Positions 4,161-49,284 of a stretch of DNA of 55,296 nt are shown in pieces (within the stretch, counting starts at the first letter, position 1; each line of letters starts with the position of its first letter). Made by a program: the position numbers and the translations under genes. The notes beneath the pieces were generated by a model, which was given only the letters and a program-made list of their open reading frames with translations, was not told the origin of the DNA and ran no database searches. The DNA is taken from contig NC_057755.1 of the NCBI RefSeq assembly GCF_004010195.1, positions 7,453,312 through 7,508,607 on the forward strand, in the 5' to 3' direction. This DNA comes from Chiloscyllium plagiosum. Its lineage: Eukaryota.

Positions 4161-4162
4161 AG

Positions 4163-5606
4163 TCATTGACGAACTACTTGGAGAATTAGAGTAACCGGAT
4201 AATCTACAGCTGCTCTCTGAACTTTGTTTGGGTCATGGTATAAATCCCAGTGCTCATATAGCAACTGAGGAGCTGCAGCATGAAACTTAGTTCCAACCCA
4301 AACCAAAAAACCCATAATGACATCCCAATAAACCACATCTGGTTCCATATGCAATAAAACATTAACATTGCACATGATATAAGGAGATTTACTGAAATAA
4401 GCAACAGTAAAATAACATCTTCGTTGGTTCTCCATTTCTGCAGCACTGGGGCTCTCCCCTTTGCTGTGAGCCTGGAGTCTCTTGCGGGCTCTTCTGGTCA
4501 CTAAAATATGTTTGACAGTGAAAATATTGAGAAGCAGAATCAGGGCAAATCGAAGACATGGTGTTATAAAATGGCAGACAAATTAAATTTCTCTCCAAAA
4601 TTCATTGATTGAATATGGATTGTACATCACAAAAACAAAGAAAATTCTTCAGCCAACTTGTTAGCATAAAATACTGAAACATGTTCTTTAAACAACTCAG
4701 CACAGTTACCATTCCTAGAACCAGAGCTGCCACATGCTTGGTACAATATTTAATATTAAATATCTGCCAACAAATGGTTACAAAGTGATCAAAAGTGAAA
4801 GTGACTGTGAATCAGTCAGTAGCTGTAAAGAGGAGGGTAACACATTTTTTGGCTTTCATTAACAGGAGGGTTTAGTTTAAGAGCCATGAAACCTTGTTGC
4901 AGCTCTATAAAACTTTGGTTAGACCGCACTTGGAATACTGCGTCCAGTTCTGGTCACCCTATTATAAGAAAGATGTGGATGCTTTGGAGAGGGTTCAGAG
5001 GAGGTTTACCAGGATGCTGCCTGGACTGGAGGGTTTATGTTATGAAGAGAGGTTGACTGAGCTCGGACTTTTTTCATTCGAGAAAAGGAGAAGAGGGGAC
5101 CTAATTGAGGTATACAAGATAATGAGAGGCATAGATAGAGTCGATAGCCAGAGACTATTTCCCAGGGCAGAAATGACTAACTCGAGGGGTCATAGTTTTA
5201 AGCTGGTTGGAGGAAAGTATAGAGGGGATGTCAGAGGCGGGTTCTTTACACAGAGAGTTGTGAGAGCATGGAATGCGTTGCCAGCAGCAGTTGTGGAGGT
5301 AGGGTCATTGGAGACTTTTAAGAGACTGCTGGGCATGCATATGGTCATAGAAATTTGAGGGTGCATACATGAGGATCAATGGTCGGCACAACATCGTGGG
5401 CTGAAGGGCCGGTTCTGTGCTGTACTGTTCTATGTTCTAACATCAGGAAAATAAACTGTTCCTTATAAACAATTGGGATTTGTCTCAATATCAGGTCAAA
5501 GATAACAACCATTAGATCCACCTCTGCCATGACCAAGAGGTAAAGACTGGCACTTTAGAGATGCTACACTTTCCACAAGACAGGACCACAATTGCCAATA
5601 TGTTAG
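4163..5606 (-). pseudogene. GPR139-like class A GPCR pseudogene (exon 2), split by a CR1 insertion
   Basis: Across frameshifts the minus strand reads NILAIVVLSCGKCSISK..YLLVMAEVDLMVVIFDLILRQIPIVYKEQFIFL, [CR1], ATD*FTVTFTFDHFVTICWQIFNIKYCTKHVAALVLGMVTVLSCLKNMF, LLNIFTVKHILVTRRARKRLQAHSKGESPSAAEMENQRR, LQLLSCYMSTGIYTMTQTKFREQL, YPVTLILQVVRQ*. This is collinear with the intact gene at 43161-44077. The splice acceptor reads cac instead of cag. Confidence 0.88.
4845..5437 (+). mobile_element. 5'-truncated CR1 LINE inserted in the GPCR pseudogene
   Basis: ORF 4894-5358 LYKTLVRPHLEYCVQFWSP...FFTQRVVRAWNALP; ends in ctgtactgttctatgttct tail. Confidence 0.9.
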
Positions 5607-6429
5607 GTGAGAGGAAAGGAAGCAATCAATGACATTAAACATCAAGCTGAGAGCAAAGTTTTCAATTTGCCTGAAGATTTGGTGGGATTTTCAAAATTCT
5701 CAAACCATCTTCTATGCAGAACTTGAGGTGAGGAACATACTCTTGAGTTATCTGCTTCTCTCCCTTGGACTGCCTAGTAGTCATCCATTTCTTATCTGCC
5801 TCCATATTCTTTGCCTGTCGTGTGACCATCCCTTGAAGTGTGCTATCCATGTAACTCTCAGCCTGACAGATATACCAGTGTCTCCAGCCTCCACTCTGAA
5901 ACCCAGAGTGCAAGTTTCTACAGTTTCTTTCTGGATGCAATTGCTTCAAAAGTGATCAGCTCGACACCAGTGGTGCCCTTGGTCTCCTACATATGTCAGG
6001 TCACACATTCCACTCGATCCAACTGAGCTGCCAATTCTTAACTTTTATTTCCTTTCATTAATTTTATTTTGTTTTGGGCTTCTTATCTAACTTTTGTCAT
6101 GTTTTTCTAATAAATCCAATGATATGCTTCTTTTAAATTAATACTTTTTAAAAATTTACAACAATTTCAAAACAGTTATCTAGTAATAGAACTGCACCAA
6201 TCAATGAGCTTACTACAAAAGAATAGAAGAAATATAGAACATCTCTTCCTCATCTTACCCCAAACTCCCTACCCAGCAAACGTCACTTGTTGCGAAGATT
6301 TAACTGAAACACCTCTTTCCACCTTTTCACTGAGTTCTCACTTGAACCACATTCCCAATATACTCTCTCAGGCACCGTAAATTTGGGGCTGTCCCTCCTC
6401 ACTGCTGATTATCTTTCAAACTATTCTGT

Positions 6430-10164: not shown

Positions 10165-10860
10165 AAGAACATGGGAACATAAGTAATAGGAGCAGGAGTA
10201 GGCCATCTGACCGGACAAGTCTACTCTTTCAATAAGGTCATGACGTATCTTATCGTGAGCTCAGCTCCATTTACACATCGGTTCACCAGAATCCTTAATT
10301 CCTTTATTGTTGAAAAATCTATATTTATAAAGACAAGCATTCAATGCGGCAGTCTCGACTGCCTCGTTACACCGGGAACTCGAAAGAATCACAATTCTTT
10401 AGGTGTAGAAGTTCTTCCTCAATTCAGGCCTAAATATGCTTCCCTTTATTTTGAGGCTATGCCACCCATTCTGTACTTTCACCCACCCTCAAATGCAACA
10501 TTCCTGCTTCGACCTTATCTATTCCCTTCATAGTCGAATATGTTTCAAGAAGATTCCCCTTCATTGTTCTCAATTCCAATGAGTGCAGTCCCAGTCTACT
10601 TAATCTCTTTTTGTAAGCCAACCCTCCCAAATCAGGAATCAACCAAGTGGACTTCCTCTGCATCCCTTTCAGTGCGGGTACATACCAGTCAAGTTCTCCA
10701 AGTGTGGTCTCAATAGCACCCCACTCAATAAGCATAACCTTCTTATTATAATCTTCATCCTTCTAGCAATGAAGGACAATATTCCATTTGCTTTCTTAAC
10801 TACCTGATGCACCTGCAAACCAATATTTTATGATTCGTATACAAGGATTCCCTGGTCCCT
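10165..10860 (-). mobile_element. CR1 3' fragment (older subfamily)
   Basis: Tail aagaacatgggaacataag; ALKGMQRKSTWLIPDLGGLAYKKRLSRLGLHSLE. Confidence 0.75.
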
Positions 10861-11047
10861 GTTTATGTTTCTTTGCAAAAGGCACCGCAGACTGCCAGAC
10901 CTGCGCTGTGATCAACTGACCTTTTAAAGACTCCCACATGTTAGATGTGAACTTATCCTCAAATACGTTCCTCCAATCTAGTTTTTTTTTAATGGAGCCT
11001 CCATGCAATCTAACATTTTCAATCAAGGACTAGTCTTATCCACATTA

Positions 11048-11134
11048 TCCTGATGAATGGCTCTTGCCTGAAATGACGATTTTCCTGTTCCACGGATTTT
11101 GCCTGACCTTTGTGCATTTCCAGCACCACTCTAA
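11048..11134 (+). mobile_element. Short PLE-terminus insert with a degenerate hammerhead (duplicated at ~12651-12738)
   Basis: ctgatgaatggctcttgcctgaaatgac core; 14-bp TSD tcttatccacatta at 11034-11047 and 11135-11148. Confidence 0.75.
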
Positions 11135-11691
11135 TCTTATCCACATTAATAACAATCTGAATATTTGTGTTTAATTGACCACAGTATCGAAAATGACACC
11201 CCTCCCTATGCCTCCTCCAGTAAAAGGTCGACCTTTTGTGCAGGCGCAGTCGACAATGTCTAGAGCGGCCCAATTACAAAAGGGCCTCCATCTTACCGGA
11301 GCACATCAGACACGTATTCAGCCAACACCAGCTCATTAGTAACTTATGTGATGCACTTGCTTTGATCAGTCTGGGCATTGAGATGAAAAGCAGGATGTTT
11401 ATGATGGAATTGTTGTAAACCATTGCTTCGGGCTCACCCAAGATATTCTGTGCAGGTCTCAATCCACATGATAGGCAGAATGTGATCAATCTGGGGAGGG
11501 TGCAATGGACATTCACCAGTACGGTGTTCTTGCTGGAGATGGCTTGCTTTGGTATAAAGTGGACAGACCTGGATTGTTTTCTGGAGAACAAAGGAATTGA
11601 GAACATAGAACATAGAAAGTTTGTGAGAAGATTTGTCGCTCGGGTGCTGCTCATTGTTGTGGTTCCATTCACTGAGCTGGGAATTTGTGTT

Positions 11692-11731
11692 GCAGACGTT
11701 TCGTCCCCTGTAAAGGTGACATCCTCAGTGC
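11692..11731 (-). ncRNA. Minimal type I hammerhead ribozyme motif (PLE family B, duplicated copy)
   Basis: Minus strand gca CTGAGGA tgtcacct ttac aggggac GAAA cg TC tgc. Confidence 0.7.
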
Positions 11732-13230
11732 TTGGGAGCCTCCTGTGAAGCGCTTCTGTGATCTTTCCTCCGGCATTTGCACTGGTTTGAATCTGCCGCT
11801 TCCGGTTGTCAGTTCCAGCTGTCCGTTGCAGTGGTCGGTATATTGGGTTCAGGTCGATGTACTTATTGATTAAATCTGTGGATGAGTGCCATGCCTCTAG
11901 GAATTCCCTGACTGTTCTCTGTTTGGCTGGTCCTATAATAGTCGTGCAGTCTCGACTGCCTCGTTACACCGGGAACTCCAAAGAATCACAATTCTTTAGG
12001 TGCAGAAGTTCTTCCTCAATTCAGGCCTAAATATGCTTCCCTTTATTTTGAGGCTATGCCACCCATTCTGTAGTTTCACCCACCCTCAAATGCAACATTC
12101 CTGCTTCGACCTTATCTATTCCCTTCATAGTCGAATATGTTTCAAGAAGATTCCCCTTCATTGTTCTCAATTCCAATGAGTGCAGTCCCAGTCTACTTAA
12201 TCTCTTTTTGTAAGCCAACCCTCCCAAATCAGGAATCAACCAAGTGGACTTCCTCTGCATCCCTTTCAGTGCGGGTACATACCAGTCAAGTTCTCCAAGT
12301 GTGGTCTCAATAGCACCCCACGCAGCTGAAGCATAACCTCCTTATTTTAATCTTCATCCCGCCAGCAATGAAGGACAATATTCTATTTGCTTTCTTAACT
12401 ACCTGATGCACCTGCAAACCAATACTTTATGATTCGTATACAAGGATTCCCTGGTCCCTGTTTATGTTTCTTTGCAAAAGGCACCGCAGACTGCCAGACC
12501 TGCGCTGTGATCAACTGACATTTTAAAGACTCCCACATGTAAGATGTGAACTTATCCTCAAATAGGTTCCTCCAATCTAGTTTGTTTTATTTTAATGGAG
12601 CCTCCCTGCAATCTAACATTTTCACTCAAGGACTAGCCTTATCCACATTATCCTGATGAATGGCTCTTGCCTGAAATGACGATTTTCCTGTTCCACGGAT
12701 TTTGCCTGACCTTTGTGCATTTCCAGCACCACTCTAATCTTATCAACATTAATAACAGTCTGAATATTGAATGTTTAATTGACCACAGTATCGAAAATGA
12801 CACCCCTCCCTATGCCTCCTCCAGTGAAAGGTCGATCTTTTGTGCAGGCACAGTCGACAAACAAGGTCTAGAGTGGCCCAATTACAAAAGGGCCTCCATC
12901 TTACCGGAGCACATCAGACACTTATTCAACCAACACCAGCTCATTAGTAACGTATGTGATGCACTTGCTTTGATCAGTCTGGGCATAGAGATGAAAAGCA
13001 GAATGTATATGTTGGAACTGTTGTAAACCATTGCTTCGGGCTCACCCAAGATATTCTGTTCAGGTCTCAATCCACATGATAGGCAGAATGTGATGAATCT
13101 GGGGAGGGTGCAATGGACATTCACCAGTACGGTCTTCCTGCTGGAGATGGCTTGCTTTGGGGATAAAGTGGACAGACCTGGATTGTTTTCTGGAGAACAA
13201 AGGAATTGAGAACATAGAACATAGAACATA

Positions 13231-14603
13231 GAAAGTTTGTGAGAAGATTTGTCGCTCGGGTGCTGCTCATTGTTGTGGTTCTGTTCACCGAGCTGGGAAT
13301 TTGTGTTGCAGACGTTTCGTCCCCTGTCTAGGTGACATCCTCAGTGCTTGGGAGCCTCCTGTGAAGCGCCTCTGTGATCTTTCCTCTGGCATTTGCACTG
13401 GTTTGAATCTGCCGCTTCCGGTTGTCCGTTCCAGCTGTCCGTTGCAGTGGTTGGTATACTGTGTCCAGGTCGATGTACTTATTGATTGAATCTGTGGATG
13501 AGTGCCATGCCTCTAGGAATTCCCTGGCTGTTCTCTGTTTGGCTGGTCCTATAATAGTAGTGTTGTCCCAATCGAATTCATGTTGCGTTTCATCTGCATG
13601 TGTGGTTACAAAGGATAGCCTATCGTGTCGTTTCGTGGCTAGTTGGTGTTCATGGATGCGGATTGTTGCTGACTTCCTGTTTGTCCTATGTAGTGTTTTG
13701 TGCAGTACTTGCATGGGATTTTGTACACTATATTGGTTTTGCTCATGCTGGGTATCGGGTCCTTCGTTCTGGTGAGTCGTTGTCTGAGAGTGGCTGTTGA
13801 TTTGTGTGCTGTTTTGAGTCTTAGTGGTCGCAGTAGTCTTGCTGTCAGTTCGGAAATGCTCTTGATGTACGGTAGTGTGGCTAGTCCTTTGGGTTGCGGC
13901 ATGTCCTCGTTCCATTGTCTTTCCCTTACGCATCTGTTGATGAAATTGCAGGGGTATCCGATTTTGGTGAATGCATTGTATAGGTGTTCTTCCTCTTTTT
14001 GCAGTTCTGGTGTTCTGGTGTTGTGACCCTTTTGAATAGCGTCTTGTTACACCTTCTTTTGTGTGCGTTGGGGCGGTTGCTTTCGTAGTTCAGGACTTGG
14101 TCTGAGTGTGTGGCTTTCCTGAATACATTTGTGGTGAATTCTCCGTTCGGTGTTCTCTGTACCATCACGTCCAGGAATGGGAGTTGGTTGTCATTTTCTT
14201 CCTCTCTAGAGAGTCGGATTCCTGTGAGTGTGGCGTTGAGGATCTAGTGAGTGTTCTCTATTTCTGTGTTTTTAATGATTACAAATGTGTCAACCACATA
14301 TCTGACCCAGAGTTTGGGTTGAATTTGCGGTAAGACTGTTTGTTCTGATCTTTGCATTACCGCTTCTGCAATGAGTCCAGAGATGGGTGAGCCCATGGGT
14401 GTGCTGTTGATTTGGTCATATATTTGGTTGTTGAATGTGAAGTGTGTTGTGAGGCACAGGTCCAGTACTTTGAGTATGCCGTCTTTTTTGATAGGTTCAA
14501 CGTCCTGTTGTTTGTTCTGTATGTCCAGCAGGTTGGCTATTTTTTCTCCGGCTCGGGTTTTGCCGATAGAGGTGAACCGTGCCGTCACATCAAATGAGAA
14601 CAT
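13231..14603 (-). mobile_element. Penelope/Poseidon-type PLE, 5'-truncated (RT + GIY-YIG endonuclease)
   Basis: MFSFDVTARFT, TPMGSPISGLIAE, LWVRYVVDTFVII (14244-14648); FRKATHSDQVLNYES; LPYIKSISE..IVYKIPCKYCTKHYIGQTG (13639-13902); RIHEH..REFLEAW. Confidence 0.9.
13308..13347 (-). ncRNA. Minimal type I hammerhead ribozyme motif (PLE family B)
   Basis: Minus strand gca CTGAGGA tgtcacct agac aggggac GAAA cg TC tgc: complete CUGAnGA/GAAA/UH core, stem I gca/tgc, palindromic ACGU stem III. Confidence 0.75.
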
Positions 14604-16441
14604 AGTATTCCCAGTCAATATTGGGGAGGTTAAAGTCCCCCATAACAACTACCCTGTTACTCTCGCTCCTATCGAGAATCATCTTTGCTATCCTTTCCTC
14701 GACATCTCTGGAACTATTCGGAGGCCTATAGAACCCTCCCAGCAGGGTGACCTCTCCTTTCCTGTTTCTAACTTCAGCCCATGCTATCTCAGTGGATGAA
14801 TCCTCAAACATTATTTCAGCTGTTGTAATACTACGCTTGACTAACAACGCCACACCCCGTCTTTAACCATCTTCTATGTTCTTGCTGAAACTTGTAAATC
14901 CCAGAACCTGTAACAACCATTCCTGTCCCTGCTCTAGCCATGTCTCTGAAATGGCCACAACACCGAAATCTCAGGTACCAACTCATGCTGCAAATTCCCC
15001 AGCCTTACCCCGGATGCACCTGACATTGAAGTACACACATTTCAATCCAACATGCTGATTGCCGGTGCCCACTCGTGAACTTGTAAACCTATTCCCTGAG
15101 CTCATTACGCTCAACCTCCGGTACACTGGAACTGCAATTCAGGATCTCACCCCCATTGCAGCATTAGTTTAAACCCCCCGAAGAGCATTAGCAAATTCCA
15201 CCACCACCCCCAAAATATTGGTACCGGTATGGTTCAGGTGAAGAACATCCACCCCCATTGCAGCATTAGTTTAAACCCCCCGAAGAGCATTAGCAAATTC
15301 CACCACCTCCCCCAAAACTTTGGTACCGGTATGGTTCAGGCGAAGAACATCCGGTTTGTAGAGGTCTATTCTTCCCCAGAAAGAGCTCCAATTATACAAG
15401 AACCCAAAACCATCCTTCATGCACCAACCCTATAGCCATGTGTTCAACTCCTCTTTCTATTCTTCGCTTCACAAGCACATGCTCGGGCAACAAACCAGAT
15501 ACAACAACTCTGTTTTGTCTAGCTCTAAGTTTCCACCCCAGCTCCATGAATTTCTGCATTAGATACCCACCTTTTTTTCCACCTATGTCATTGGTGTCTA
15601 TGTGTACCAGAACTTGGGGCTGCTCCCCCTCCTCTTCAACAATCCCAAAAATATGATCAGAGACAATACAAACACTGGTAACTGGCAACAAACTAATCAC
15701 GAGTCCCTCTGATTTCCACAAAACCTTCTATCTTTCCCTGTAACTATGGAGCCCCAATGACTAAAGCTCTGCGCCATTTCCCTCCTTCCCTTCTGAGCAG
15801 CAGCTCCAGACTCTGCCTCAGAGACCTGTGCCACATTGCTTACCCCTGGTGTGTCTTCCCCAACAGTATCCAAAATGCTACACTTGTTGTTGAAGGGAAC
15901 CACCACAGGAGATCCCTGCACTGCCTGCCGGTTCCATTTCCTACTCCTGACAGTAACACATCTGCCTTTGTCATGTGGCTGTGGAGTAACTACCTGCTTG
16001 TAACTCCTCTCAATAACCCCGTCCACCTTCTGAATAATCCGTAGATCATCCAACTCCAGTTCCAGTTTCATAATTTCGTTGTTGTGGAGCTTGCGTTGGG
16101 AGAACATCCCACAAATGAGATCAGCGGGGACACTATAGGTGACCCTTACCTCCCACATACTGCAGGAGAAACATTCAACTCTCCTAAACTCCATTCCCAC
16201 TATTTTAAATTCCCAAACAATCCGCTGACAAAACGAAACACAAAGGAAAACACTTACCACCTTACCAACCGACGCACATAACTTTTATTTTGGTAAAAGG
16301 AGGAGGAGGGGTGAGGGACACTACCCGAGTAGTGTTTCAGGTAAAGCAACCGCCAAATATCTAATCTTGTGCCCAACGTCCTACTCGACGCTATCACACT
16401 TCCTGCTGCTGGAACAACATTGGCCTTCCTGGCTCAGTGCT
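14604..16441 (-). mobile_element. CR1 5' half (ORF1 + endonuclease), paralogous to ~2435-4160
   Basis: ORF 15697-16260 is nearly identical to 3437-3979; VVMGDFNLPNIDW and FYRPP endonuclease motifs. Confidence 0.88.
15149..15353 (+). repeat. ~100-bp tandem duplication inside CR1
   Basis: ccccattgcagcattagtttaaaccccccgaagagc...aagaacatcc occurs twice in succession. Confidence 0.85.
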
Positions 16442-16443
16442 AT

Positions 16444-16748
16444 TCATTGATGAACTACTTGGAGAATTAGAGTAACTGGATAATCTACAGCTGCTCTCTG
16501 AACTTTGTCTGGGTCATGGTATAAATCCCAGTGCTCATACAGCAACTGAGGAGCTGCAGCATGAAACTTAGTTCCAACCCAAACCAAAAAACCCACAATG
16601 ACATACCAATAAACTACATCTGGTTCCACATGCAATACAACATTAACATTGCACATGATATAAGGAAGTTGACTGAAATAAGCAACAGTGAAATAACAGA
16701 CCGTTGTCGATTCTCCATCTCTGCAGCACTGGGGCTCTTCCCTTTGCT
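16444..16748 (-). pseudogene. Second GPR139-like pseudogene fragment (ICL3-TM6-TM7-C tail only)
   Basis: Highly similar to 4163-4465 (SKGKSPSAAEMENRQRSVISLLLISVNFLISCAM...KFREQL); upstream part deleted. Confidence 0.85.
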
Positions 16749-16799
16749 ACTCCTCACTGCTCATTATCTTTCAAACTATTCTGTTCCATGTTGTACCAG

Positions 16800-28865: not shown

Positions 28866-31800
28866 GACCCAGCAAGTCTGAGTCGACAGTGCTCCTCCCA
28901 AGACTTGGGTAAAGTGGGTCGCCCACCCCCCATCACACTCACCAAATCATTTATAATAGTTGTTTAATTTAATTAGTTGCTTAATATTAAACTTAAACAA
29001 TCGAATCTTTAATTAAAATGACAAAAGGGAAGGGAGCCCGCAGCTCTCAGTAGGCAGAACCCCGCTCCTCCACCCTCTCCAGCGGCAGCAGAGGCGTCCA
29101 CAGCCGCCGCGGGGGACTTACATACAGTGACAAGCTTTGCGGAAATGATCTCCAAGCTGGACGCAAAGATCGACGCGTTTATCGAGGAGTCCCGAAATCG
29201 ATGCGACTCACTCTCGGCCGCGCTGCAGAAGCATGACTGAGACATCCAAGAAATCGAGGGCCGAGTCGGTGGGGCGGAGTTAAAGGCCGCGACCTCCGAA
29301 ACTACAGCACAATCGGCCGTGGATCAGGTACGGACTCTCGAGCAGCGAGTCCGGACCTTGGAAAATCATATTGAGACCTCGATAATCGAGGTCGTCGAAA
29401 AAATATTCGTTTGCTGGGTCTTCCCGAACGGGAAGAGGAAGGCCAGCTTACAGCGTTTCTCGACTAGTGGCTGCCACAGCGTTTAAATCTGGAGGCTGGA
29501 TCAGGGCAGGTAAGGGTGAAATGGGCCTACCGGGTCGCAATACGTGGGCCCGGCTCGAACCAGCGCCCACACCCGGTCCTGTTCCAGCTGCAGAGCTACA
29601 GGGAAAGGCAGATACTCCTAGAAGCCTCTAGAAATCTCGGAAAAGACCCCCACGCTATGATCTACAAAGGATCTAAGATCATGCTATTCCAGGACTTTTC
29701 CCCGGCTCTGGTTCGAAAGAGGGAGGCATTCGACGAGGCGAAGAAGCGTTTAAGGGACTTAAATATTCAGTACTCCTTACGCTACCCAGCGACGCTACGC
29801 TTTAACCATGAAGGATCCGTGAATAACTTCGGATCACCAGAAAAGGCTAAGGAATTCTTGGACCCTCTTAGATAAACTGTAAGACATAATGCATGTTGGT
29901 TTTCCTTTCCCCCCACTTTGGTTTATATCCCCCCCTTTATTTTCTCCTACCTTACTGTTTAATATTATCATGGGGGTTGGGGAGAGGGATTTGATTTTAT
30001 CCCCTCCTTGGGGTTGTTTTCTTTTATTATTTTATATATATATGAGGGATGTGTGTATATGTGTGTATGTATGTATGTATATCTATATAAAAGCTGGGGG
30101 GTTTGGTTAATGTTGGATAGGGTTTCCCCTCCCGAGGGGTCTCGGATTGGCCCAGAGGATTATGGTTGATCAGTCGGTTACGTGGTGCACCTGGAATGTC
30201 AAGGGGAGTAATTCGCCAGTCAAAACGAAGAAAATATTATCAAATCTTAAGAAGGAAAGAGTTGATATAGCTCTCCTACAGGAGACACAGCTGCTGGATA
30301 AAGAACACTTGAAATTACAACAAGGTGGATTTCATCAAACCTTTTTTTCTTCTTTAATATCAAAACGGAGGGGAGTTGTTATTCTTGTTCGAAAGAATTT
30401 CCCTTTCAAAATCCTAAAGCAGATAAAAGACGAATCTGGACGATATATCTTGATTAAAGCCCTCATAAATGGAGAGGGATATGGGATTTTAAATTTGTAC
30501 TGCCCCCCGGCACACCCCTTTAAATTTATAACGGAAGCCTTTTCAAAATTGATGGCTTTTGATGCCCCGTCATATAATGATAGGGGAGACTTTAATTGTA
30601 TTATGGATCCGGAAATAGATAGGATTCCCAAGAGTACTGCAGGAGTATCTCCCAGATCTAGATGGATCTGAACAAAGAATTAGGATTAGTAGATGTATGG
30701 AGAAGCCAGAGATTTTTCTTTCTACTCTAATCCACATAAATGTCATACCAGAATTGATATGTTTTTGCCCCCTCGATTTTTCTAAATTCCATATCATCCT
30801 GTAAAATAGGTAGTATAGCAATTTCTGACCACGCTGCTATATATATGGAAACTAAGGCGAGGAACAATGGGACATCCCCTCGGCATTGGCGTATGGACCC
30901 CTTCCTAATGAAAGATAGTAAATTTGTAAAGTACTTCTCTCAAGAATTTAAAACTGTTTTTAGAAATTAATTCAGGTACAGCTAGCAACCCATCAATGAT
31001 GTGGGAGACCATCAAAGCTTACACGCGAGGTTTGATCATCTCCTACCCAGCGACCCAGAAGAAATTGAAGGGAGAACAACAGCGTCTGCTTGAAGCTCGC
31101 TTAAAAGCAGCTGAAACATCATACACTGATAGACCTTCTATTATTGAAGTGCAAAGGATTACAGCTCTTAGGATAGCTCTAAACACTACGCTTACTCAAA
31201 CGACTAAGAGGGAAATATTATTTGCAAAACAAAGGTTATATGAATATGGCGACAAACCGAGTAGGTACTTAGCATTTCTTGCAAGGAAAAAAAAAGACCC
31301 CTCAGACTATTACGTCTATCAAGGAAAGTACGGGTATTTTGACTCATGATCATAAAAAGATTAATGCGATCTTTAGGGAATTTTATTCTCAGTTATATAA
31401 ATCGCAGGATTGTGAAGATAGGATGAGGAGGATGCCTTCATTTTTTAAAAAAATTACCTTTCCAGACCAAATTCCGGAACAAGAATCGGTCCTAAATGCT
31501 CCTCTTACACTCCAAGAAATACTTGATGTAATTAGGCAACTTCAGAGTGGTAAGGTACCTGGCCCAGATGGTTTTCAAGCTGAATTCTATAAAGAATTCA
31601 CAGAAATATTGGCTGGTGCACTTATGGATAGGTATAACTATGCATATAGTCAGGGCTGTCTCCCGTCTTCGCTGAAAGAGGCAAATATCTCTCTTATCCT
31701 TAAAAAAGGAAAGGACCCAGAAGATTGTACATCATATAGACCAATATCCTTGCTAAAGGTAGATCTTAAAATCCTTTCTGAAACGTTAGCATTGAGACTA

Positions 31801-32602
31801 GAAAGGATACTGCCACATATTATAAAGGAAGATTTGACGGGGTATATTAAGGGGGGTAGATAATCCAATAATATTAGAAGCGTTTTGAATATGATTCAAG
31901 CCTGTCATCAGGGAAAGATACCAGGAGTAGTAGTTTCATTAGACGCGGAAAAGGCATTTGATAGGGTTGAATGGCCATATTTGTTATACACATTGGAAAG
32001 GTTTGGCGTTGGATAGGCGTTTACCAAATGGGTCTCAACATTGTATAGTGATCCCAAAGCAGTTGTGGTTACCAATGGATTAGGTTCGGATAGCTTCAGT
32101 GTGGGTAGGGGCTGCCGTCAGGGATGTCCCCTCTCGCCATTGTTATTTACTCTAATAATTGAGCCACTAGCAGAAGCTATACGAGCTGATCCTAATATAA
32201 CGGCCCCGAGGATTGGTACAGGTAAACATAAAATTACCCTTTATGCAGATGATGTTCTTCTATTCCTCAGTAATCCTCTGATGTCCGTACCTCATCAAAT
32301 CCAAGTTATTAATATATTTAGCGCATTCTCAGGCTATAAAATTAATTTACAAAATCGGAGGCTATGCCAATGCATGGCCTTACTATGACACCCCACTTAG
32401 TGGACGGATCCCTTTTTCCCTTTCGCTGGTCCCTGAAGGGCTTCTTATATTTAGGCATTTTATTACTCCAGTATTTGGTCAGTTGAATAAGGCTAATTTT
32501 GTGCATTTACTGGAAAGGATAAGGCAGGACCTCCAGCGATGGGGAGACCTTCCAATTTCCTGGTTGGTAGAATAGCCACTAATTAAAATGAATGTCCTGC
32601 CC

Positions 32603-33554
32603 NNNNNNNNNNNNNNNNNNNNNNNNNNNNNNNNNNNNNNNNNNNNNNNNNNNNNNNNNNNNNNNNNNNNNNNNNNNNNNNNNNNNNNNNNNNNNNNNNN
32701 NNNNNNNNNNNNNNNNNNNNNNNNNNNNNNNNNNNNNNNNNNNNNNNNNNNNNNNNNNNNNNNNNNNNNNNNNNNNNNNNNNNNNNNNNNNNNNNNNNNN
32801 NNNNNNNNNNNNNNNNNNNNNNNNNNNNNNNNNNNNNNNNNNNNNNNNNNNNNNNNNNNNNNNNNNNNNNNNNNNNNNNNNNNNNNNNNNNNNNNNNNNN
32901 NNNNNNNNNNNNNNNNNNNNNNNNNNNNNNNNNNNNNNNNNNNNNNNNNNNNNNNNNNNNNNNNNNNNNNNNNNNNNNNNNNNNNNNNNNNNNNNNNNNN
33001 NNNNNNNNNNNNNNNNNNNNNNNNNNNNNNNNNNNNNNNNNNNNNNNNNNNNNNNNNNNNNNNNNNNNNNNNNNNNNNNNNNNNNNNNNNNNNNNNNNNN
33101 NNNNNNNNNNNNNNNNNNNNNNNNNNNNNNNNNNNNNNNNNNNNNNNNNNNNNNNNNNNNNNNNNNNNNNNNNNNNNNNNNNNNNNNNNNNNNNNNNNNN
33201 NNNNNNNNNNNNNNNNNNNNNNNNNNNNNNNNNNNNNNNNNNNNNNNNNNNNNNNNNNNNNNNNNNNNNNNNNNNNNNNNNNNNNNNNNNNNNNNNNNNN
33301 NNNNNNNNNNNNNNNNNNNNNNNNNNNNNNNNNNNNNNNNNNNNNNNNNNNNNNNNNNNNNNNNNNNNNNNNNNNNNNNNNNNNNNNNNNNNNNNNNNNN
33401 NNNNNNNNNNNNNNNNNNNNNNNNNNNNNNNNNNNNNNNNNNNNNNNNNNNNNNNNNNNNNNNNNNNNNNNNNNNNNNNNNNNNNNNNNNNNNNNNNNNN
33501 NNNNNNNNNNNNNNNNNNNNNNNNNNNNNNNNNNNNNNNNNNNNNNNNNNNNNN
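32603..33554. other. Assembly gap within L1 ORF2
   Basis: Run of n; the two flanks overlap in sequence. Confidence 1.
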
Positions 33555-36192
33555 ATAGCTTCAGTGTGGGTAGTGGCTGCCGTCAGGGATGTCCCCTCTC
33601 GCCATTGTTATTTATGCTAATAATTGAACCACTAGCAGAAGCAGTACGAGCTGATCCTAATATAGTGGCCCCAAGGATTGGTACAGGTAAACATAAAATT
33701 ACCCTTTATGCAGATGATGTTCTTCTATTCCTCAGTAATCCTTTGATGTCCATACCTCGCTTAATCCAAGTTATTAATACATTTAGTGCATTCTCAGGCT
33801 ATAAAATTAATTTTTCAAAATCGGAGGCTATGCCAATGGGTGGCCTTGCTGTGATACCCCGCTTAGCGGACGGTTCCCTTTTTCCCTTTCGCTGGTCCCT
33901 GGAGGGTTTCTTATATTTAGGCATTTTTATTACTCCAGTATTTGGTCAGTTGTATAAGGCTAATTTTGTGTATTTATTGGAAAGGATAAGGCAGGACCTC
34001 CAGCGATGGGGAGTCCTTCCAATTTCCTGGTTGGGTAGAATAGCACTAATCAAAATGAATGTCCTGCTCCGTCTCCTATATCCTATGAGAATGCTTCCGG
34101 TGATGCTGCCGAGGACGGTTTTATGTAAATTATATGGCTGGCTGAGTTCCTTTATCTGGAATCATAGGTGGCCCCTCATTAAGCTGAAGAAGCTACAGCT
34201 TCCACAGGCAAGGGGTGGATTGGACTTCCCAGACTTTAGGAAATATCAGTTAAGTTCCCTATTAAGTTACATCGCTGATTGGGTCTTGTCTGATCCACAA
34301 TCAATCTGGTTGGACATCGAGGCCTCTCAAGTAAAATACCCACTTATTAACCTTTTATTCTCAGACAAGAGGAAAATCATTACAGATCACTGTAAAAACC
34401 CTATAATACTAAATACAATTAAGGCATGGAATATAATGCGGCAAAATGAGGGTAACTCACATAAAACATCCCCCTATACACCGATAGTGGGAGCATGGGG
34501 ATTCCAACCGGGGTTTACAGATGCCACTTTTAAACTCTGGAGATCCAGGGGTACCTCATGTTAAGGGAATCTATTTAAAGATGGGGTCCTGATGTCTTTT
34601 GAACAGCTGCGTCAGAAATTCGGATTACCTAATGGAGACCTATTTCGATACTTCCAAATTCGAGATTATATACAGAAGAAGACTACGTTTAAAGATAGTC
34701 CTTATAAATCAGATAGAGAATGTAGTGTCCAACGACCAGTGGAGGTATCTTCCATCAGTACTATTTATCATTTACTACATGATGAAGTATCGGGAGATAT
34801 GGATAATCTGCTTAAAACATGGGATCAGGATTTGGAACTAGAAATCTCTATAGATATGAAATGATATTTGGGAAAATGCTAGAAGAATTACTATCTGTAA
34901 CAGAACCCAGGCTATCCAGCTGAAGATACTTCATAGGGCCCATGTAGCACCGGTCTGAGTGGCAAAATTTAAGGCAGGAGAATCTCCAATGTGTCCTAAA
35001 TGCAAAATAGAGGTGGGCACTCTTGTACATTGCCAATGGACCTGTCATAAGATTCGTAGATATTGGACTAAAGTAGCAAGTACCCTGACAGAAATTTTAG
35101 GAACAGAAAGTAAAGTGGATCCTGTATCTCTCCTTTTGGGCTTTTCGAACTTTCCCTCCCTGGACACGTACGGGAAGAGACTATTTTCTATTCTTTCTTT
35201 CTGTGCAAGGAAAAATATTTTGGTGAACTGGGTGGCTGAGGGCCCCCCTGGACTTTCAAATTGGCACAGATTAATTATGGAATGTATTCCCCCTTGAGTT
35301 CCTTACAAATATGGTGCACCGAAAGACCGAATTATTTTATAAAATATGGTAGCTTTTCTTGAATTACATAAATACAGATATTTCGGCTATCCTAACAAGG
35401 GCTTTTATTTAATTGAGATTACAAACCTGGCTTGTCCGGGGCCCCTCAGGGGAGGAATCCCGCACGAATATGGGTTTTATTACATCTGATGTTAACACAT
35501 TCCGAGCATGTAAAAGACTTAAATATAAACTCTGGTTATTTGTAGGTTAGATTAGTAGGTAGTTGAGTTTTGCTTTTTGTCTTCTTTTCCATTTTTTTTG
35601 TCTTTTGTTAAATTTTGGCTATTGTATACTTGAGTTAATTGTATATCAGTGTTTATATCTGAGAGTTTTGTTTATTTTTGTAAATTTGTAAAAATGTTAA
35701 ATTTCTAATAAAAATATCTATATAAAAATGTTTGGAGTTGAGTGACCCTTCAACTCATTTTCATTGCACAGTTTATTTTCCCACCGATGCCGTCAAACCG
35801 TCTGAGCTTTTCCAGAAATGTCTGTTTTTGTGTCTGATTTACAGCAAATGCAGATCTTTCAATTTCTACAAGATATAAACTTCAGATACTGAGGTCAAAC
35901 AGGGAAAGTAAATTTGCTATTCCTAGACTTTGTGACTCCTTCAGGGGAACAGGTTTATCGATTACTGTGGAGAGGCCAGATAAATTGAATGTGCTCTAGT
36001 TCGGAAAGCGACCATTGTGCATTGGATTGGAGTGGGATTGTTAAGGGTGGGCGGAGGAGGAGTGGGAGATGTGGTGATGATTTCCCCACAGTGGCTTACG
36101 GTGATTTGGAGATGCTGGTGTTGGAATGGGGTGTATCAAGTTAAAAATTACACAATACCAGGTTAGAGTCCAACAGGTTTAATTGGAAGCAA

Positions 36193-41339: not shown

Positions 41340-41346
41340 TATATAA
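41340..41346 (+). promoter_or_regulatory. Candidate TATA box of the GPCR gene
   Basis: tatataa ~70 bp upstream of the ATG at 41417; positional evidence only. Confidence 0.3.
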
Positions 41347-41416: not shown

Positions 41417-41483
41417 ATGCACCGCCCCATTCAGACCATCAGGAAAATATTCTATCTGATCCTTGGTGTGATTGGTGTTCCTG
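41417..41483 (+). CDS. GPR139-like class A GPCR, coding exon 1 (short N terminus + first half of TM1)
   Basis: aagATG, MHRPIQTIRKIFYLILGVIGVP, then donor G|gtaagt (phase 1). Confidence 0.85.
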
Positions 41484-41598
41484 GTAAGTTCCTGCAAACA
41501 TGTTATAACATAGGATGTTTCAATTTGTGTTGGATCGAGCTTCTCTTGTTATCTGTGAGTGACAACATTACACAACTCACTAATAGCCTGGACGGGGT

Positions 41599-41810
41599 GC
41601 GTGTCACTTGGCTCAGTTGGCTGGAACACTGTTTTTGACACAGAGTGATGCCAACAGTTTTGAGTCTGCATGTGCAGAGGTTAATGTGAAGGACTGTCCT
41701 TCTCAATCTCATCCCTCACCCTGAGGCATTGCTCAGTGATCATCAGGATTAAACACCACGAGTCAACTCTATCTCGATCGCTCAGCTAGACTCTGGTGAC
41801 TTGACATCGT
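41599..41810 (+). mobile_element. Decayed tRNA-like SINE in the GPCR intron
   Basis: A-box-like tggctcagttggctgga head; B-box eroded. Confidence 0.45.
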
Positions 41811-41994
41811 TGTCAAAGTTAAATGAAAAGCAATTCTAAACTTGTATGAGGATAATGTCAAATATATTAGTTTTGTACATCTTTATTCTGTTGCCTCAAC
41901 AGTATCCTGTGCTATTACATTGTGGTATCATGTTATTTCATTCTGTGCAGTTGTGTATATGACTAAAGTGTTCGTCAGCATAATTTCTTCATCA

Positions 41995-42124
41995 ATTCCT
42001 AAAGAAAAGCTTATGTTTGAAACATGGACACTCCTGTTCCTCGGATGTTGCCTGACAGGCCGTGCTTTTCCAGCACCACACTTTTAGACTCTGATCTGTA
42101 GTATCTGCAGTCCTCACGTTCTCC
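41995..42124 (+). mobile_element. Decayed PLE-terminus insert (family A) in the intron
   Basis: ttcctaaagaaaagcttatgtttgaaacatg (eroded hammerhead) followed by the gcttttccagca...ctgcagtcctcac tail. Confidence 0.7.
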
Positions 42125-42447
42125 TATGTGATTAAATTGCAAAACGCCATTGGTGTTCCTTGTTTGGGGATACATTCCCAGGCAGAACGCAGTTTAACAC
42201 TGAACCCTAACAACATTGTATTACAAAGTGCGACTTTGCCATTGAACGTGTTTTGGGTGGAGTTGGATGCATAAATTGGAAGCATTAAGCCTGTTAATGC
42301 AATGATCGTTCCATCATTTCAGAAGAAAAAATTCTGAGTTTCCTGGTTTCATTTGCAATTTCATTAAACTTGTTTTGCTACCAAGGATATCTAATCTTCG
42401 GTCGCCCATTTCTGCGGCTATGGGGAATGATTCAAGAAGAATAAGGG

Positions 42448-42650
42448 CTAAAAATGTGTTGCTGGAAAAGCGCAGCAGGTCAGGCAGCATCCAAGGAGCA
42501 GGAGAATCGACGTTTCGGGCATGAACCCTTCTTCAGGGCTCAATTCTCGTCGATTCTTCTGCTCCTTGAATGCTGCCTGACCTGCTGTGCTTTTCCAGCA
42601 ACACATTTTCAGCTAGGATCTCCAGCATCTGCTGTCCTCACTTTCTCCTC
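42448..42650. mobile_element. Palindromic PLE-terminus insert with a minus-strand hammerhead core, in the intron
   Basis: Inverted arms; minus strand CTGAAGA a gggt tcat gccc GAAA cg TC at ~42509-42536; TSD caagaag(a/g)ataaggg at 42433-42447 and 42651-42665. Confidence 0.85.
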
Positions 42651-43160
42651 CAAGAAGGATAAGGGTCTATTACATGAGAAAGTAATGTGAATTTGATAAA
42701 AAGTTCTCCTGTACAGAGGAAATCAGAGTTTAAGATGGAATCAATCATTTTCTGTTCTGCTGCCTAATATTATACAGCACTTGTGCTTCCTGGGAGCAAT
42801 TTATATCAACGTCCCTTTTATATAGAAAGTATTTCAAGCAAAATGTTGTGATGATGGAGCTTTAAAAGAAGCACTGAAGCTGCTGTAGAAATTGCTCAGG
42901 TCTGGTAGCGCCTGTGGAGAGAGAGAAGCAGAGATAAACTTTTACGCTCAGATGTGGCTTTTCTGCAGAACTCTACACAAGCCGAATATGATCCAGTGAG
43001 CTGTCATGCCCGCTAATATCATGGTTATCATTATTTAAATTCAGTCTTGTTTCCGACTCAAAACTTCGAATTGCTAAAGTACAGCATTTGCCACCTAGAT
43101 TCAGGAACGAACATTGTTTTATCAGCAATTTCCAACAAAATTCCTTTCTGTTTCTTCCAG

Positions 43161-44077
43161 TTAATTTATGCGCAATTGTGATCCTGTCCCGAGAAAAATG
43201 CGGAATCTCCACCTGTACAAAGCATTACATGGTTGCCATGGCAACGACAGATCTGCTGTTCGTTATTTTAGAGATCATACTCAGCAAAGTGGAAAATGAT
43301 TATTTCCCGTCAACGTTCCTGAACATCACCTCTGTGTGTCGTGTATGTTATGCCCTACGTCGTGCAATCATCGACTGTTCTGTTTGGTTCAATGTCGCCT
43401 TCACCTTTGATAGATTTGTTGCTATTTGTTGTCAGAAGCTAAAATTGAAGTATTGTACCAAGAAAACTGTGGCTGTGGTTCTAGCGACATCAAGCATTCT
43501 GCTCTGTTTAAAAAACATTCCCATCTACTTTAGATTTAGACATGGAATGATTATTAACCACATGCCATATTATTGTTTTAATTCGAAAGCATATTATGTT
43601 AATCTCTTGTGGAGACGATTTAAATTATTTGAAAAGATTTTAACTCCAATATTCCCATTTGGTTTAATTTTGTTACTCAACACTCTAACAATCAGTCAAA
43701 TTTTCGTGACCAATCGAGTCCGCAAGAGATTGATGTGCCCGAACAAGGGTGAGAATCACAGGGACCCAGAGATGGAGAGCAGAAGGAAATCAATGATATT
43801 ACTCTTCGCCATATCCGCCAATTTCATACTTCTGTGGGTGTGGTACATTTTAGGTTATTTTGGTGTTGCTGATGATATCTTCGATAGTGACGGTGAATAT
43901 ACGTTTAAACGTGTTTCATATATGCTCCGCAATTTAAGTTGCTGCACAAATTCTTTGATTTATGCAGTGACTCTGCCCAAGTTCAGAGAACACGTGATCA
44001 ATGCAGTGAAATATCCACTGAAATTTATTGTTCAGTTTATTAATCGGAAAAGGAGGGGAGGGGAGGTCATAGATTAA
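43161..44077 (+). CDS. GPR139-like class A GPCR, coding exon 2 (TM1 end to C terminus); spliced product 327 aa
   Basis: Acceptor ttcctttctgtttcttccag|TT gives in-frame GVPVN. TM2 AMATTDLL, TM3 C..DCSVWFNVAFTFDRFVAIC, ECL2 Cys, TM5 PIFPF..LLN, TM6 FILLW, TM7 CCTNSLIY, helix 8 KFRE. No internal stop; 67+917=984 nt. Confidence 0.92.
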
Positions 44078-47040: not shown

Positions 47041-47755
47041 CTCATTTATTCTCACTCTGCTTCCTGTAAGTTAACCAATCCTCTATCCTTGCTAATAAAA
47101 TGCCCATAATGCCTTGCATCTTTATCTTATGCAGCAGCCTTTTGTGTGGGGACCTTCTTGAATGCGTTTTGAAAATATAGCCATTGTACATCTACTGGAT
47201 TGCTGTTGTCCATTTTGTTTGTAATGTCTTGATAGAATTCCAAAAGATTAGTTAAGCATGCCATGTCCATTATGAACCCATGCTGTTTCTGCCCAACGGT
47301 ACAATATATATCCAGATGCCTTGCTATTCCTTCCTTGACAATAGCCTCAAGCATTATGTCAACTGGTCTATAATTCCACACCTTTTGTCGTTCTTCCTTT
47401 TTAAACAGTGACATCACATTTTCTGTTTTCCAACCTGGAAGAACGGACCCAGAGTCCACTGAACGTTGTATGATATATATATGCAATAAGTGCATACGCT
47501 ATTTCTCCCACCATCACTTTTAACACCCTGGCCTGAATTGCATTAGGGCCAGGAGACTTGTCTACTCTTAGCTCCATTAACTTGCCCAACATTATCTCTT
47601 CGTGATAATGATTGCTTCCAGGTCCACACTTACTCTCATCTCTTTGTCAATTTCTGGCGTGTTATTCATGTGCTCCACTGTGAAGACCAACACAAAATAC
47701 CTGGTCAATGCCTTGGCCATTTCATCATATCCAATTACAAAATTCCCCCATCATC

Positions 47756-48105
47756 NNNNNNNNNNNNNNNNNNNNNNNNNNNNNNNNNNNNNNNNNNNNN
47801 NNNNNNNNNNNNNNNNNNNNNNNNNNNNNNNNNNNNNNNNNNNNNNNNNNNNNNNNNNNNNNNNNNNNNNNNNNNNNNNNNNNNNNNNNNNNNNNNNNNN
47901 NNNNNNNNNNNNNNNNNNNNNNNNNNNNNNNNNNNNNNNNNNNNNNNNNNNNNNNNNNNNNNNNNNNNNNNNNNNNNNNNNNNNNNNNNNNNNNNNNNNN
48001 NNNNNNNNNNNNNNNNNNNNNNNNNNNNNNNNNNNNNNNNNNNNNNNNNNNNNNNNNNNNNNNNNNNNNNNNNNNNNNNNNNNNNNNNNNNNNNNNNNNN
48101 NNNNN
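47756..48105. other. Assembly gap flanked by ~700-bp direct repeats
   Basis: Run of n; 47056-47755 matches 48106-~48803. Confidence 0.95.
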
Positions 48106-49284
48106 TCTGCTTCCTGTTAGTTAACCAATCCTCTATCCTTGCTAATAAAATGCCCATAATGCCTTGCATCTTTATCTTATGCAGCAGCCTTTTCTGTGGG
48201 CACCTTATTGAATGCCTTTTGAAAATATAGCCAGAGTACATCTACTGGATTGCTGTTGTCCATTGTGTTTGTAATGTCTTGATAGAATTCCAAAAGATTA
48301 CTTAAGCATGCCATGTCCATTATGAACCCATGCAGTTTCTGCCCAATGGTACAATATATATCCAGATGCCTTGCTAGTCCTTCCTTGACAATAGCCTCAA
48401 GCATTATGTCAACTGGTCTATAATTCCACACCTTTTGTCGTCGTTCCTTTTTAAACAGTGACATCACATTTGCTGGTTTCCAACCTGGAAGAACGGACCC
48501 AGAGTCCACTGAATGTTGTATGATATATATATGCAATAAGTGCATACGCTATTTCTCCCACTATCTCTTTTAACACCCTGGCCCGAATTGCATTAGGGCC
48601 AGGAGACTTGTCTACTCTTAGCTCCATTAACTTGCCCAACATTATCTCTCCGTGATAATGATTGATCCAGGTCCACACTTACTCTCATCTCTTTGTCAAT
48701 TTCTGGCGTGTTATTCATGTGTTCCACTGTGAAGACCAACACAAAATACCTGGTCAATGCCTTGGCCATTTCCTCATATCGAATTACAAAAACCCCCATC
48801 ATCCTCTAAAGGACCAATGTTTACTTCAGTCACTTTTTTTGTTGTTCAGATGAAAGTACGTACCTCTCCTGTCACTGGCTTCTTTGTGTAAATGTTATTG
48901 ACTTTCAGTCACGGAAGTTTGCCTCCGTGGTCGTTCGGTTTCCATTTTCATACCGAAGCTCTCTCTCTCTTATGTTGCCTGACTGTCATTGTTAACATCT
49001 GGCAGATCCAGCTCAGAGGCTTACATCAGTTAGTGGAAGACGAGGTCAAGATGGGGGATCTGGTGTGTCAGAGATGGGGATGAGAAATGGCAGGCGCAGT
49101 CCCATTGCTTTGAGGCTTCTCCGTGACTTCTGTCCTCTACGTGCAAACCGTACCAGGATGATCTGCTCCAAAGGCTCATTGTTCACATTTTGAAACAAGG
49201 TGACACTCCACAAAACACAGACACGGCCTCTCATTGATCCCTCTGTGACAACATGCAATTCCACTACTTGCCTTTCGAAAGGTG

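Follow-up and report, generated by a model that had tools for sequence, protein, structure and literature searches.

GPR139, a G-protein-coupled receptor (GPCR), is encoded by two exons and is 70% identical between human and zebrafish (PMC7318219; papers are cited by PMC number for those parts of their text that were available). The clade comprising GPR139 and GPR142 shares ancestry with the MIP, FMRFamide, proctolin and myosuppressin receptors (PMC8514136). Rinne et al. (2019; PMC6504862) described the non-mammalian orphans GPR210A and GPR210B and a third subtype beside GPR139/GPR142 in gar, teleosts and coelacanth, and an “Orphan 139-like” group appears, with no further description, in a table of PMC5207463. 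The available text of these two papers describes no expansion, and the main text of Rinne et al. includes no cartilaginous fish. Although their olfactory organs are large, the published view of sharks is that they have few GPCRs and few olfactory receptors (PMC8455134; PMC10116579); the catshark has 34 V2R/OlfC genes and 4–9 genes in each other olfactory family (PMC10116579). Here, we describe a receptor gene in a stretch of 55,296 nucleotides (nt) of the bamboo shark Chiloscyllium plagiosum (NC_057755.1, positions 7,453,312 to 7,508,607; “the window”). The gene is a member of a GPR139-related family of cartilaginous fishes that very probably represents a repertoire of diversified ligand detectors.

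The locus at 41417..44077 is a real, unbroken two-exon class A receptor gene (Table 1). Exon 1 starts with an ATG, and GTAAGT follows directly after its last nucleotide; exon 2 is preceded by a pyrimidine tract and CAG and ends in TAA. The joined exons (984 nt) encode 327 amino acids with a sole, terminal stop codon, and three neighbouring acceptor offsets for exon 2 gave 18–22 stops each. The intron falls between P22 and V23, within the first transmembrane helix (TM1; hydropathy peak at residues 14–32). There is no N-x-S/T sequon in the N-terminus and one at residue 77, in the first extracellular loop (ECL1). Homologue N-termini of near-identical form (P0022, P0081) backed exon 1, which was also the single match in the window of a hidden Markov model (HMM) built from the N-termini of the family (expect value, E, 3e-7). 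A Pfam search gave 7tm_1 for exon 2 at 57.4 bits (cut-off 30.5); besides this, only a chance match to F-box was found at E ≤ 1, and no OR, TAAR, V1R, V2R or T2R profile. The class A landmarks are N24, D53, C82, DRF at 106–108, P188, W248, N286 and Y290, with P6.50 and P7.50 missing across the whole shark family. An AlphaFold2 model of exon 2 was a helical bundle (predicted local distance difference test score 77.7), and its top 50 Foldseek matches were class A receptors throughout (template-modelling score 0.55–0.72); GPR139 was not among these 50, in a comparison that does not resolve class A subfamilies. A previous sequence-only reading of this DNA had proposed a clean two-exon, 327-residue seven-helix gene with a sequon-free N-terminus and a phase-1 intron inside TM1, and the boundaries, GT/AG sites, open frame and 7tm_1 match all agree with it.

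Searched against the PDB on its own, the window receptor had no match at E ≤ 0.001, and human GPR139 was reached only at E 0.055, covering just 123 residues. With a profile of the family, human GPR139 (7VUG/9M42) was the best match at 57.8 bits (E 8e-15), the next being at 37 bits. Since GPR139 is the best solved relative of the family profile, the kinship is real, though distant, and on this homology the family is part of the wider GPR139/GPR142/GPR210 clade. The two share the class A fold, W6.48, the absence of proline at 7.50 and a two-exon gene. However, only about one quarter of the columns are alike, the shark family has a longer ECL2 and third intracellular loop (ICL3) and no P6.50, and it comprises hundreds of paralogues where GPR139 is one gene. 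The shark receptors have C3.25 and a cysteine in ECL2, while in GPR139 the residue aligned in TM3 is not a cysteine. Position 7.50 is S287 in the window receptor and F in GPR139, and 98% of the 120 close members have T there; position 6.51 is Y251, as in 78% of the close members, where GPR139 and GPR142 have R6.51 in common. The motif SVW..V.FT.DRF.AIC, which had been taken as characteristic of the GPR139/GPR142 group, proved to be the consensus of the shark family itself and is shared with human GPR139 only in part.

The residues of GPR139 that bind agonist and Trp/Phe are E3.32, F3.33, H5.43, W6.48, R6.51 and N7.38 (PMC8807744). When pocket positions were mapped by hand, from the profile alignment and by counting from helix anchors, the window receptor kept one of these six, W6.48, the others being R, R, E, Y and Y. 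We considered the possibility that the gene is the shark orthologue of GPR139 or GPR142 and senses Trp and Phe, as its database name of “probable GPR139” and the best PDB match of the family profile would suggest. This is exceedingly improbable and was rejected: a match at E 0.055 over 123 residues compares with 70% identity between human and zebrafish GPR139, E3.32, F3.33, H5.43, R6.51 and N7.38 are replaced, and one species holds at least 54–62 copies. The suspicion that this is not the GPR139 orthologue was thus correct, but the suggested sensing of aromatic amino acids does not agree with the replacement of the Trp/Phe pocket. The charged pocket residues of the window receptor are R3.32, R3.33, K5.43 and R7.42, together with E2.57, D3.37 and E5.42; judged from charge alone, the predicted ligand of this pocket is anionic or zwitterionic, in contrast to the Trp/Phe binding mode of GPR139.

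The exon 2 search returned 2225 proteins at E ≤ 0.001 from a collection clustered at 90%, and family membership was read for the best 120 of these 2225 matches. The 120 came exclusively from 14 shark and ray species, at 50–65% identity, and were nearly all named “probable GPR139”. Heterodontus francisci accounted for 64 of them, falling into at least 62, 61, 60 and 54 distinct groups at 99, 97, 95 and 90% core identity, respectively; by a count made by eye, at least 35 of the 64 were on sequences of identical size (74,466,956 nt). A profile search of 50% representatives gave 132 at E ≤ 1e-30, and the 18 family representatives looked up were 16 elasmobranch proteins, one from Callorhinchus milii and one without an organism name. 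The closest public protein to the window receptor among the matches listed was 65% identical, with no exact match. On the evidence of these matches, the family is very large, with the many paralogues that had been anticipated, and the match listing together with tblastn and self-blastn also bore out clustering and pseudogenes. It is likewise chondrichthyan-wide, since the chimaera member nests inside it. The expansion is therefore not elasmobranch-specific, as had been thought, and its root gene survives in amphibians and sturgeon.

The shark and ray entries that RefSeq and GenBank name “probable G-protein coupled receptor 139” are this very family, and the automatic name hides its expansion. 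The first exon is wrong in 36 of the 120 public models of close members. Public models (e.g., P0052, P0060, P0071, P0123) often lack the short first exon, and their N-termini match long interspersed nuclear element (LINE) sequence of the window; the models need curation before they are used for counts or trees. We found no description of the expansion in the literature, in a search that left subscription papers mostly outside and in a field where supplements could list the genes. The family is not mentioned in the available text on the catshark (PMC11979771), the whale shark (main text and supplements) and the bamboo shark (PMC7677710), nor in that of preprints on the zebra shark and on tandem arrays (Squalomix) and of a supplement to a nurse shark spleen study (PMC10529500). 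The repertoire thus is apparently undescribed, as the sequence-only reading had supposed, while the genes themselves are already catalogued under the GPR139 name.

Two groups of more conserved relatives, here called subfamilies A and B, were also identified. Subfamily A (P0231, P0278–P0297) comprised 20 amphibian rows (frogs, salamanders and a caecilian), one per species label and 66–74% identical, which include XP_069092602.1 of Pleurodeles and P0281 of Xenopus tropicalis, and a sturgeon (Acipenser) protein, P0297, at 46% identity. The next matches were four shark-family proteins at 32–33%, and no amniote or teleost appeared among the 25 subfamily A matches. Identity to the window receptor was 24–27%. 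Subfamily B (P0232, P0241, P0302–P0419) was found once each, at 60–66% identity, in coelacanth, ray-finned fishes, amphibians, turtles, squamates and three sharks, and the 120 matches listed carried no name of a bird or mammal; “one per species” describes the match lists of both subfamilies, not genome counts. The Latimeria protein P0232 falls in subfamily B, which sharks keep separately. Profiles of both subfamilies also had GPR139 as their best solved relative (A, 53.2 bits, next 39.8; B, 70.4 bits, next 43.9), and amphioxus proteins lie further out than either. Two subfamily B models carry names fused to TMEM183A, which suggests a neighbouring gene. Subfamilies A, B and C of our analysis probably correspond to the subtypes of Rinne et al.

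In a 48-row IQ-TREE tree, in which the 29 family rows are all named and the bootstrap correlation was a slightly unsettled 0.987, the 30 chondrichthyan rows formed one clade (support 92/90) that was sister to subfamily A (100/100), with subfamily B separate (100/100). The chimaera protein nested within the shark clade, and the window gene grouped, at 100/98, with proteins of the whale shark and the bamboo shark. A 95-row tree, made in quick form only, agreed (94 and 99 in the Shimodaira–Hasegawa-like approximate likelihood ratio test); of its 26 unlabelled representatives, 18 were looked up and 8 assumed to be chondrichthyan. The window receptor is thereby placed with GPR139-like orphans and not with the known vertebrate chemoreceptor families. 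Besides being the sister group, subfamily A shares the motif at the end of ICL3, ICL2 and a short unglycosylated N-terminus (18/18) with the shark family, but it has one cluster per species and a frozen, GPR139-like pocket. The history we infer starts from one gnathostome gene, which amphibians and sturgeon kept as a single copy and which multiplied in cartilaginous fishes ahead of the chimaera–shark split.

Amino-acid site rates among paralogues, which are not ratios of nonsynonymous to synonymous change, were calculated per family on fixed trees for 16 GPR139 pocket positions (PMC8807744) and compared by permutation. In the 120 close members, the pocket evolved at 1.68, compared to 0.92 for the other outer TM positions and 0.36 for the inner TM positions (P = 0.003), and ICL1 and ICL2 were slow (0.40 and 0.35). 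The corresponding rates for 32 divergent members were 1.56, 1.05 and 0.54 (P = 0.003). In subfamilies A and B, by contrast, the pocket was the slowest part: 0.32, 0.80 and 0.68 for the 21 proteins of A, and 0.40, 1.02 and 0.65 for the 120 of B. With positions adjacent to ECL3 dropped, the pocket/outer ratios were 1.86 (close), 1.60 (divergent), 0.30 (A) and 0.41 (B). Distinct 12-residue pocket signatures numbered 104 among 120 close members, 3 among 21 in A and 39 among 115 in B. Seven carpet-shark proteins that are 62–67% identical to the window receptor share 11–12 of its 12 pocket residues, whereas the median over 152 members is 5 of 12. Subfamily A keeps F3.33, W6.48, K6.51 and N7.39, and 100% of the subfamily B rows have R6.51, which has been described as a special residue of GPR139/GPR142. 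The GPR139-like pocket is therefore likely to be ancestral and to have been remodelled in sharks. By this pocket, the orphan of subfamily A is itself a candidate amino-acid sensor.

A fast pocket combined with a slow inner face fits a repertoire of diversified ligand detectors, and is the pattern to be anticipated where many receptors, tuned to ligands that differ, use one signalling route; it does not indicate the cell type. In this scheme, one ancient GPR139-related gene likely duplicated repeatedly to produce the very large cartilaginous-fish family. Its members would bind different ligands through the variable outer pocket, different pockets meaning different ligands, and would signal through a shared, conserved G-protein face, presumably by coupling to Gq/Gi-type proteins as for GPR139. 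The ligands may be external chemicals met by sensory cells of the nose, mouth, skin or gut. A different possibility is that the receptors bind ligands inside the body, such as shark peptides, metabolites, and gamete or pheromone-like signals, so that the family would have kept the peptide-receptor ancestry of the clade, shared with the MIP, FMRFamide, proctolin and myosuppressin receptors. The retained TM3–ECL2 cysteine pair and a β-hairpin-like ECL2, as in peptide receptors, are consistent with this. However, endogenous ligands usually limit the number of receptors and keep their pockets constant, which is the situation in subfamilies A and B, and the more than 50 distinct receptors in one species would need a matching expansion of ligands. 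We know of no such expansion, and consider an endogenous or reproductive repertoire unlikely.

The OR, TAAR, V1R/ORA and V2R/OlfC repertoires resemble the shark family in being large and clustered, in their birth-and-death evolution and in having a variable pocket with a constant inner face, but they have no sequence kinship to it. The formyl-peptide receptors of the rodent vomeronasal organ are another vertebrate chemoreceptor repertoire, and expansions of the same wider receptor clade, the nematode srw receptors and those of Aplysia, are regarded as chemosensory. Look-alikes in an atlas search (score 0.94–0.96) were clusters from rotifers, nematodes, echinoderms and chordates, some of them Srw-bearing, and serve as leads only. 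The chances appear about even that the family is chemosensory in the broad sense, with the window gene one ordinary member. The proposal of a birth-and-death chemosensory repertoire holds up as regards family size, clustering, pseudogenes and the fast pocket with its conserved inner face, but not as regards gene architecture. A short unglycosylated N-terminus is common to subfamilies A and B, with sequons in 4/63, 0/18 and 1/52 of the models with a short N-terminus in the close members, A and B, respectively. Gene models break just before the TM1 asparagine in 36/120 close members and 21/120 of subfamily B, and therefore point to the same intron position in both; breaks were found in 0/21 of subfamily A, which is uninformative on this point. 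Thus, on the comparison with these subfamilies, the short N-terminus and TM1 intron are inherited and carry no information on chemoreception.

Several points weigh against the interpretation of the family as chemosensory detectors, and of the window copy as one of them. Immune receptor families display the same pattern of a repertoire with fast pockets. The trees leave out true GPR139 and GPR142. A broader list of 32 pocket positions gave ratios of 1.18 and 1.21 in the two shark sets, which were not significant (P = 0.18 and 0.07) but still far above those of A (0.40) and B (0.46), and relaxed constraint could produce part of the fast-pocket pattern. The window receptor departs from the family at 15 of 113 strongly conserved columns, where the family median is 3 and only 2 of 120 members are as high; because of these departures, this copy may be relaxing. 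The read joint 41483/43161 was not among the joints listed for four sequencing runs mapped to the locus. In a single-cell run (2% read), exon 2 had a depth of 0.17–0.37 at 85% likeness, which may come from reads of a paralogue. In the catshark, the nose is described as relying on V2Rs (PMC10116579), and the top-50 list for “brain and olfactory epithelium” in the available text holds no GPCR (PMC11979771).

The 15 departures would also agree with a largely neutral amplification, in which repeat-driven segmental duplication spread a compact gene and most copies, perhaps including the window copy, are drifting; the LINE-rich surroundings, local duplications and pseudogenes in the window point the same way. 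Such an origin appears improbable for a family that predates the chimaera–shark split, that keeps 113 columns conserved to 90% or more among 120 members of about 60% identity, and that changes at 1.68 in the pocket but at 0.36 in the inner TM part; the pocket of the window gene's own subfamily is also kept across carpet-shark genera. Moreover, in a contig from a related organism, the coding part is more conserved than its flanks: there were 7 differences in 538 positions over 43006–43543, a stretch that includes 155 intron letters, compared to 31 in 547 in two non-coding pieces (Fisher P = 9e-5). Two repeat-overlapping pieces were left out of this comparison, and their inclusion (47/868) gave the same result. 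Considering the open frame, the good splice sites, the kept pocket and the fewer coding differences, the window copy is probably functional. Other contigs, about 93% alike and only by guess RNA, cover exon 2 from 43159 and parts of the 3' flank, and not unique intron or exon 1; a relative's spliced transcript could give this picture, which is no proof of one.

Birth-and-death clusters with fast pockets would fit equally well if the receptors were carried by leukocytes or barrier epithelia and detected microbial or damage-derived molecules. Formyl-peptide and Mas-related receptors of mammals are parallels for such an immune repertoire, and anionic products of microbes could be ligands of the cationic residues in the pocket. 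Evidence of an olfactory role was not found in the available text of the catshark papers (PMC11979771, PMC10116579). On the other hand, the nearest solved relative is GPR139 and no chemoattractant receptor (57.8 bits, next 37), the wrong first exons of 36/120 public models weakly suggest poor read support in commonly sequenced organs, and the GPR139 term is missing from the available part of the nurse shark spleen supplement (PMC10529500; 4,750 characters). An immune role is possible but less likely than a chemosensory one. Returning to chemoreception, it is tentatively possible, and clearly less probable than a chemosensory role in the broad sense, that the family is a fifth chemoreceptor family of vertebrates, which would have evolved independently and would exceed the V2R repertoire of cartilaginous fishes in size. 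Its recruitment would date back more than 400 million years, to a single GPR139-related receptor of the amino-acid type, and each olfactory or other sensory neuron would express one or a few members. Syed et al. (PMC10116579) reported that nearly all catshark olfactory neurons are Go- and TRPC2-positive, with sparse V2R labelling (0.7–5.9 cells per mm); by analogy with the V1Rs, neurons of this kind could accommodate a family of class A receptors.

The features of the window are listed in Table 1. The pseudogene, whose best matches are P0145 and P0155, has stops and frameshifts and is split by a repeat insertion (4847–5439); the exon-1 HMM found no exon 1 for it in the window. Self-blastn aligned 2963–4465 with 15254–16748 (88% identical over 1511 nt), and because the TM6–TM7 fragment lies within this duplicate, there is one pseudogene lineage. 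Of the two divergent pseudogenised paralogues claimed previously, the decay is thus real, but the second is a partial copy of the first and not an independent paralogue. A GDSL-like lipase domain match at 2978–3415 (minus strand, 33 bits) adjoins the pseudogene and was also copied in the 15.3–16.7 kb duplicate; it is presumably the ORF1 (open reading frame 1) esterase of a LINE.

Table 1. Positions of the receptor gene and related features in the window.
Feature	Position	Strand	Details
Coding exon 1	41417..41483	+	67 nt; N-terminus and first half of TM1
Phase-1 GT-AG intron	41484..43160	+	1677 nt; high-copy repeats resembling short interspersed nuclear elements (SINEs) at ~41995-42135 and 42447-42650
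Coding exon 2	43161..44077	+	917 nt; end of TM1 to stop; N1.50, D2.50, C3.25, DRF, ECL2 Cys, P5.50, W6.48, NxxxY
TATA-like box	41340..41346	+	77 nt 5' of ATG; read from sequence; putative promoter role
Pseudogene, other subfamily of same receptor family	4198..5622	-	tblastn; exon-2 pieces 5604-5444, 4811-4668, 4615-4418, 4371-4207
TM6-TM7 fragment	16447..16751	-	tblastn; within 1.5-kb local duplicate 15254-16748 of pseudogene 3' end

The remainder of the window consists mainly of LINE-type repeats, with no further host gene in the window and no tandem repeat between 37084 and 51074. A LINE-type element at 29468–35297 (plus strand) has an endonuclease (30111–30668) and reverse transcriptase pieces (31273–34561), and is interrupted by stops and an N gap. 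Near-identical local duplicates were found at 10349–13562 (1.6 kb tandem, 95%), 47056–48803 (700 nt, 96%) and 32090–34067 (514 nt, 93%), of which the last two adjoin N gaps and may be assembly artefacts. The SINE-like intron element at 42447–42650 is very high-copy, with an internal inverted repeat, many copies in the window and heavy read depth.

The interest of these observations lies in the family, of which the window gene is an ordinary member. The frozen pockets of subfamilies A and B and the fast pockets of the sharks present a clean case of a single orphan receptor becoming a repertoire, and the amphibian sister gene, found once per species as in Xenopus, offers a simple model for the ancestral ligand. 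The question of the role is directly testable with existing catshark tissue and public RNA sequencing data. More than 50 distinct members in one species under the GPR139 label challenge the view of sharks as GPCR-poor, whatever the tissue in which they act. If the family does turn out to be a fifth chemoreceptor family, it would resolve why large-nosed sharks appear so poor in olfactory receptors.

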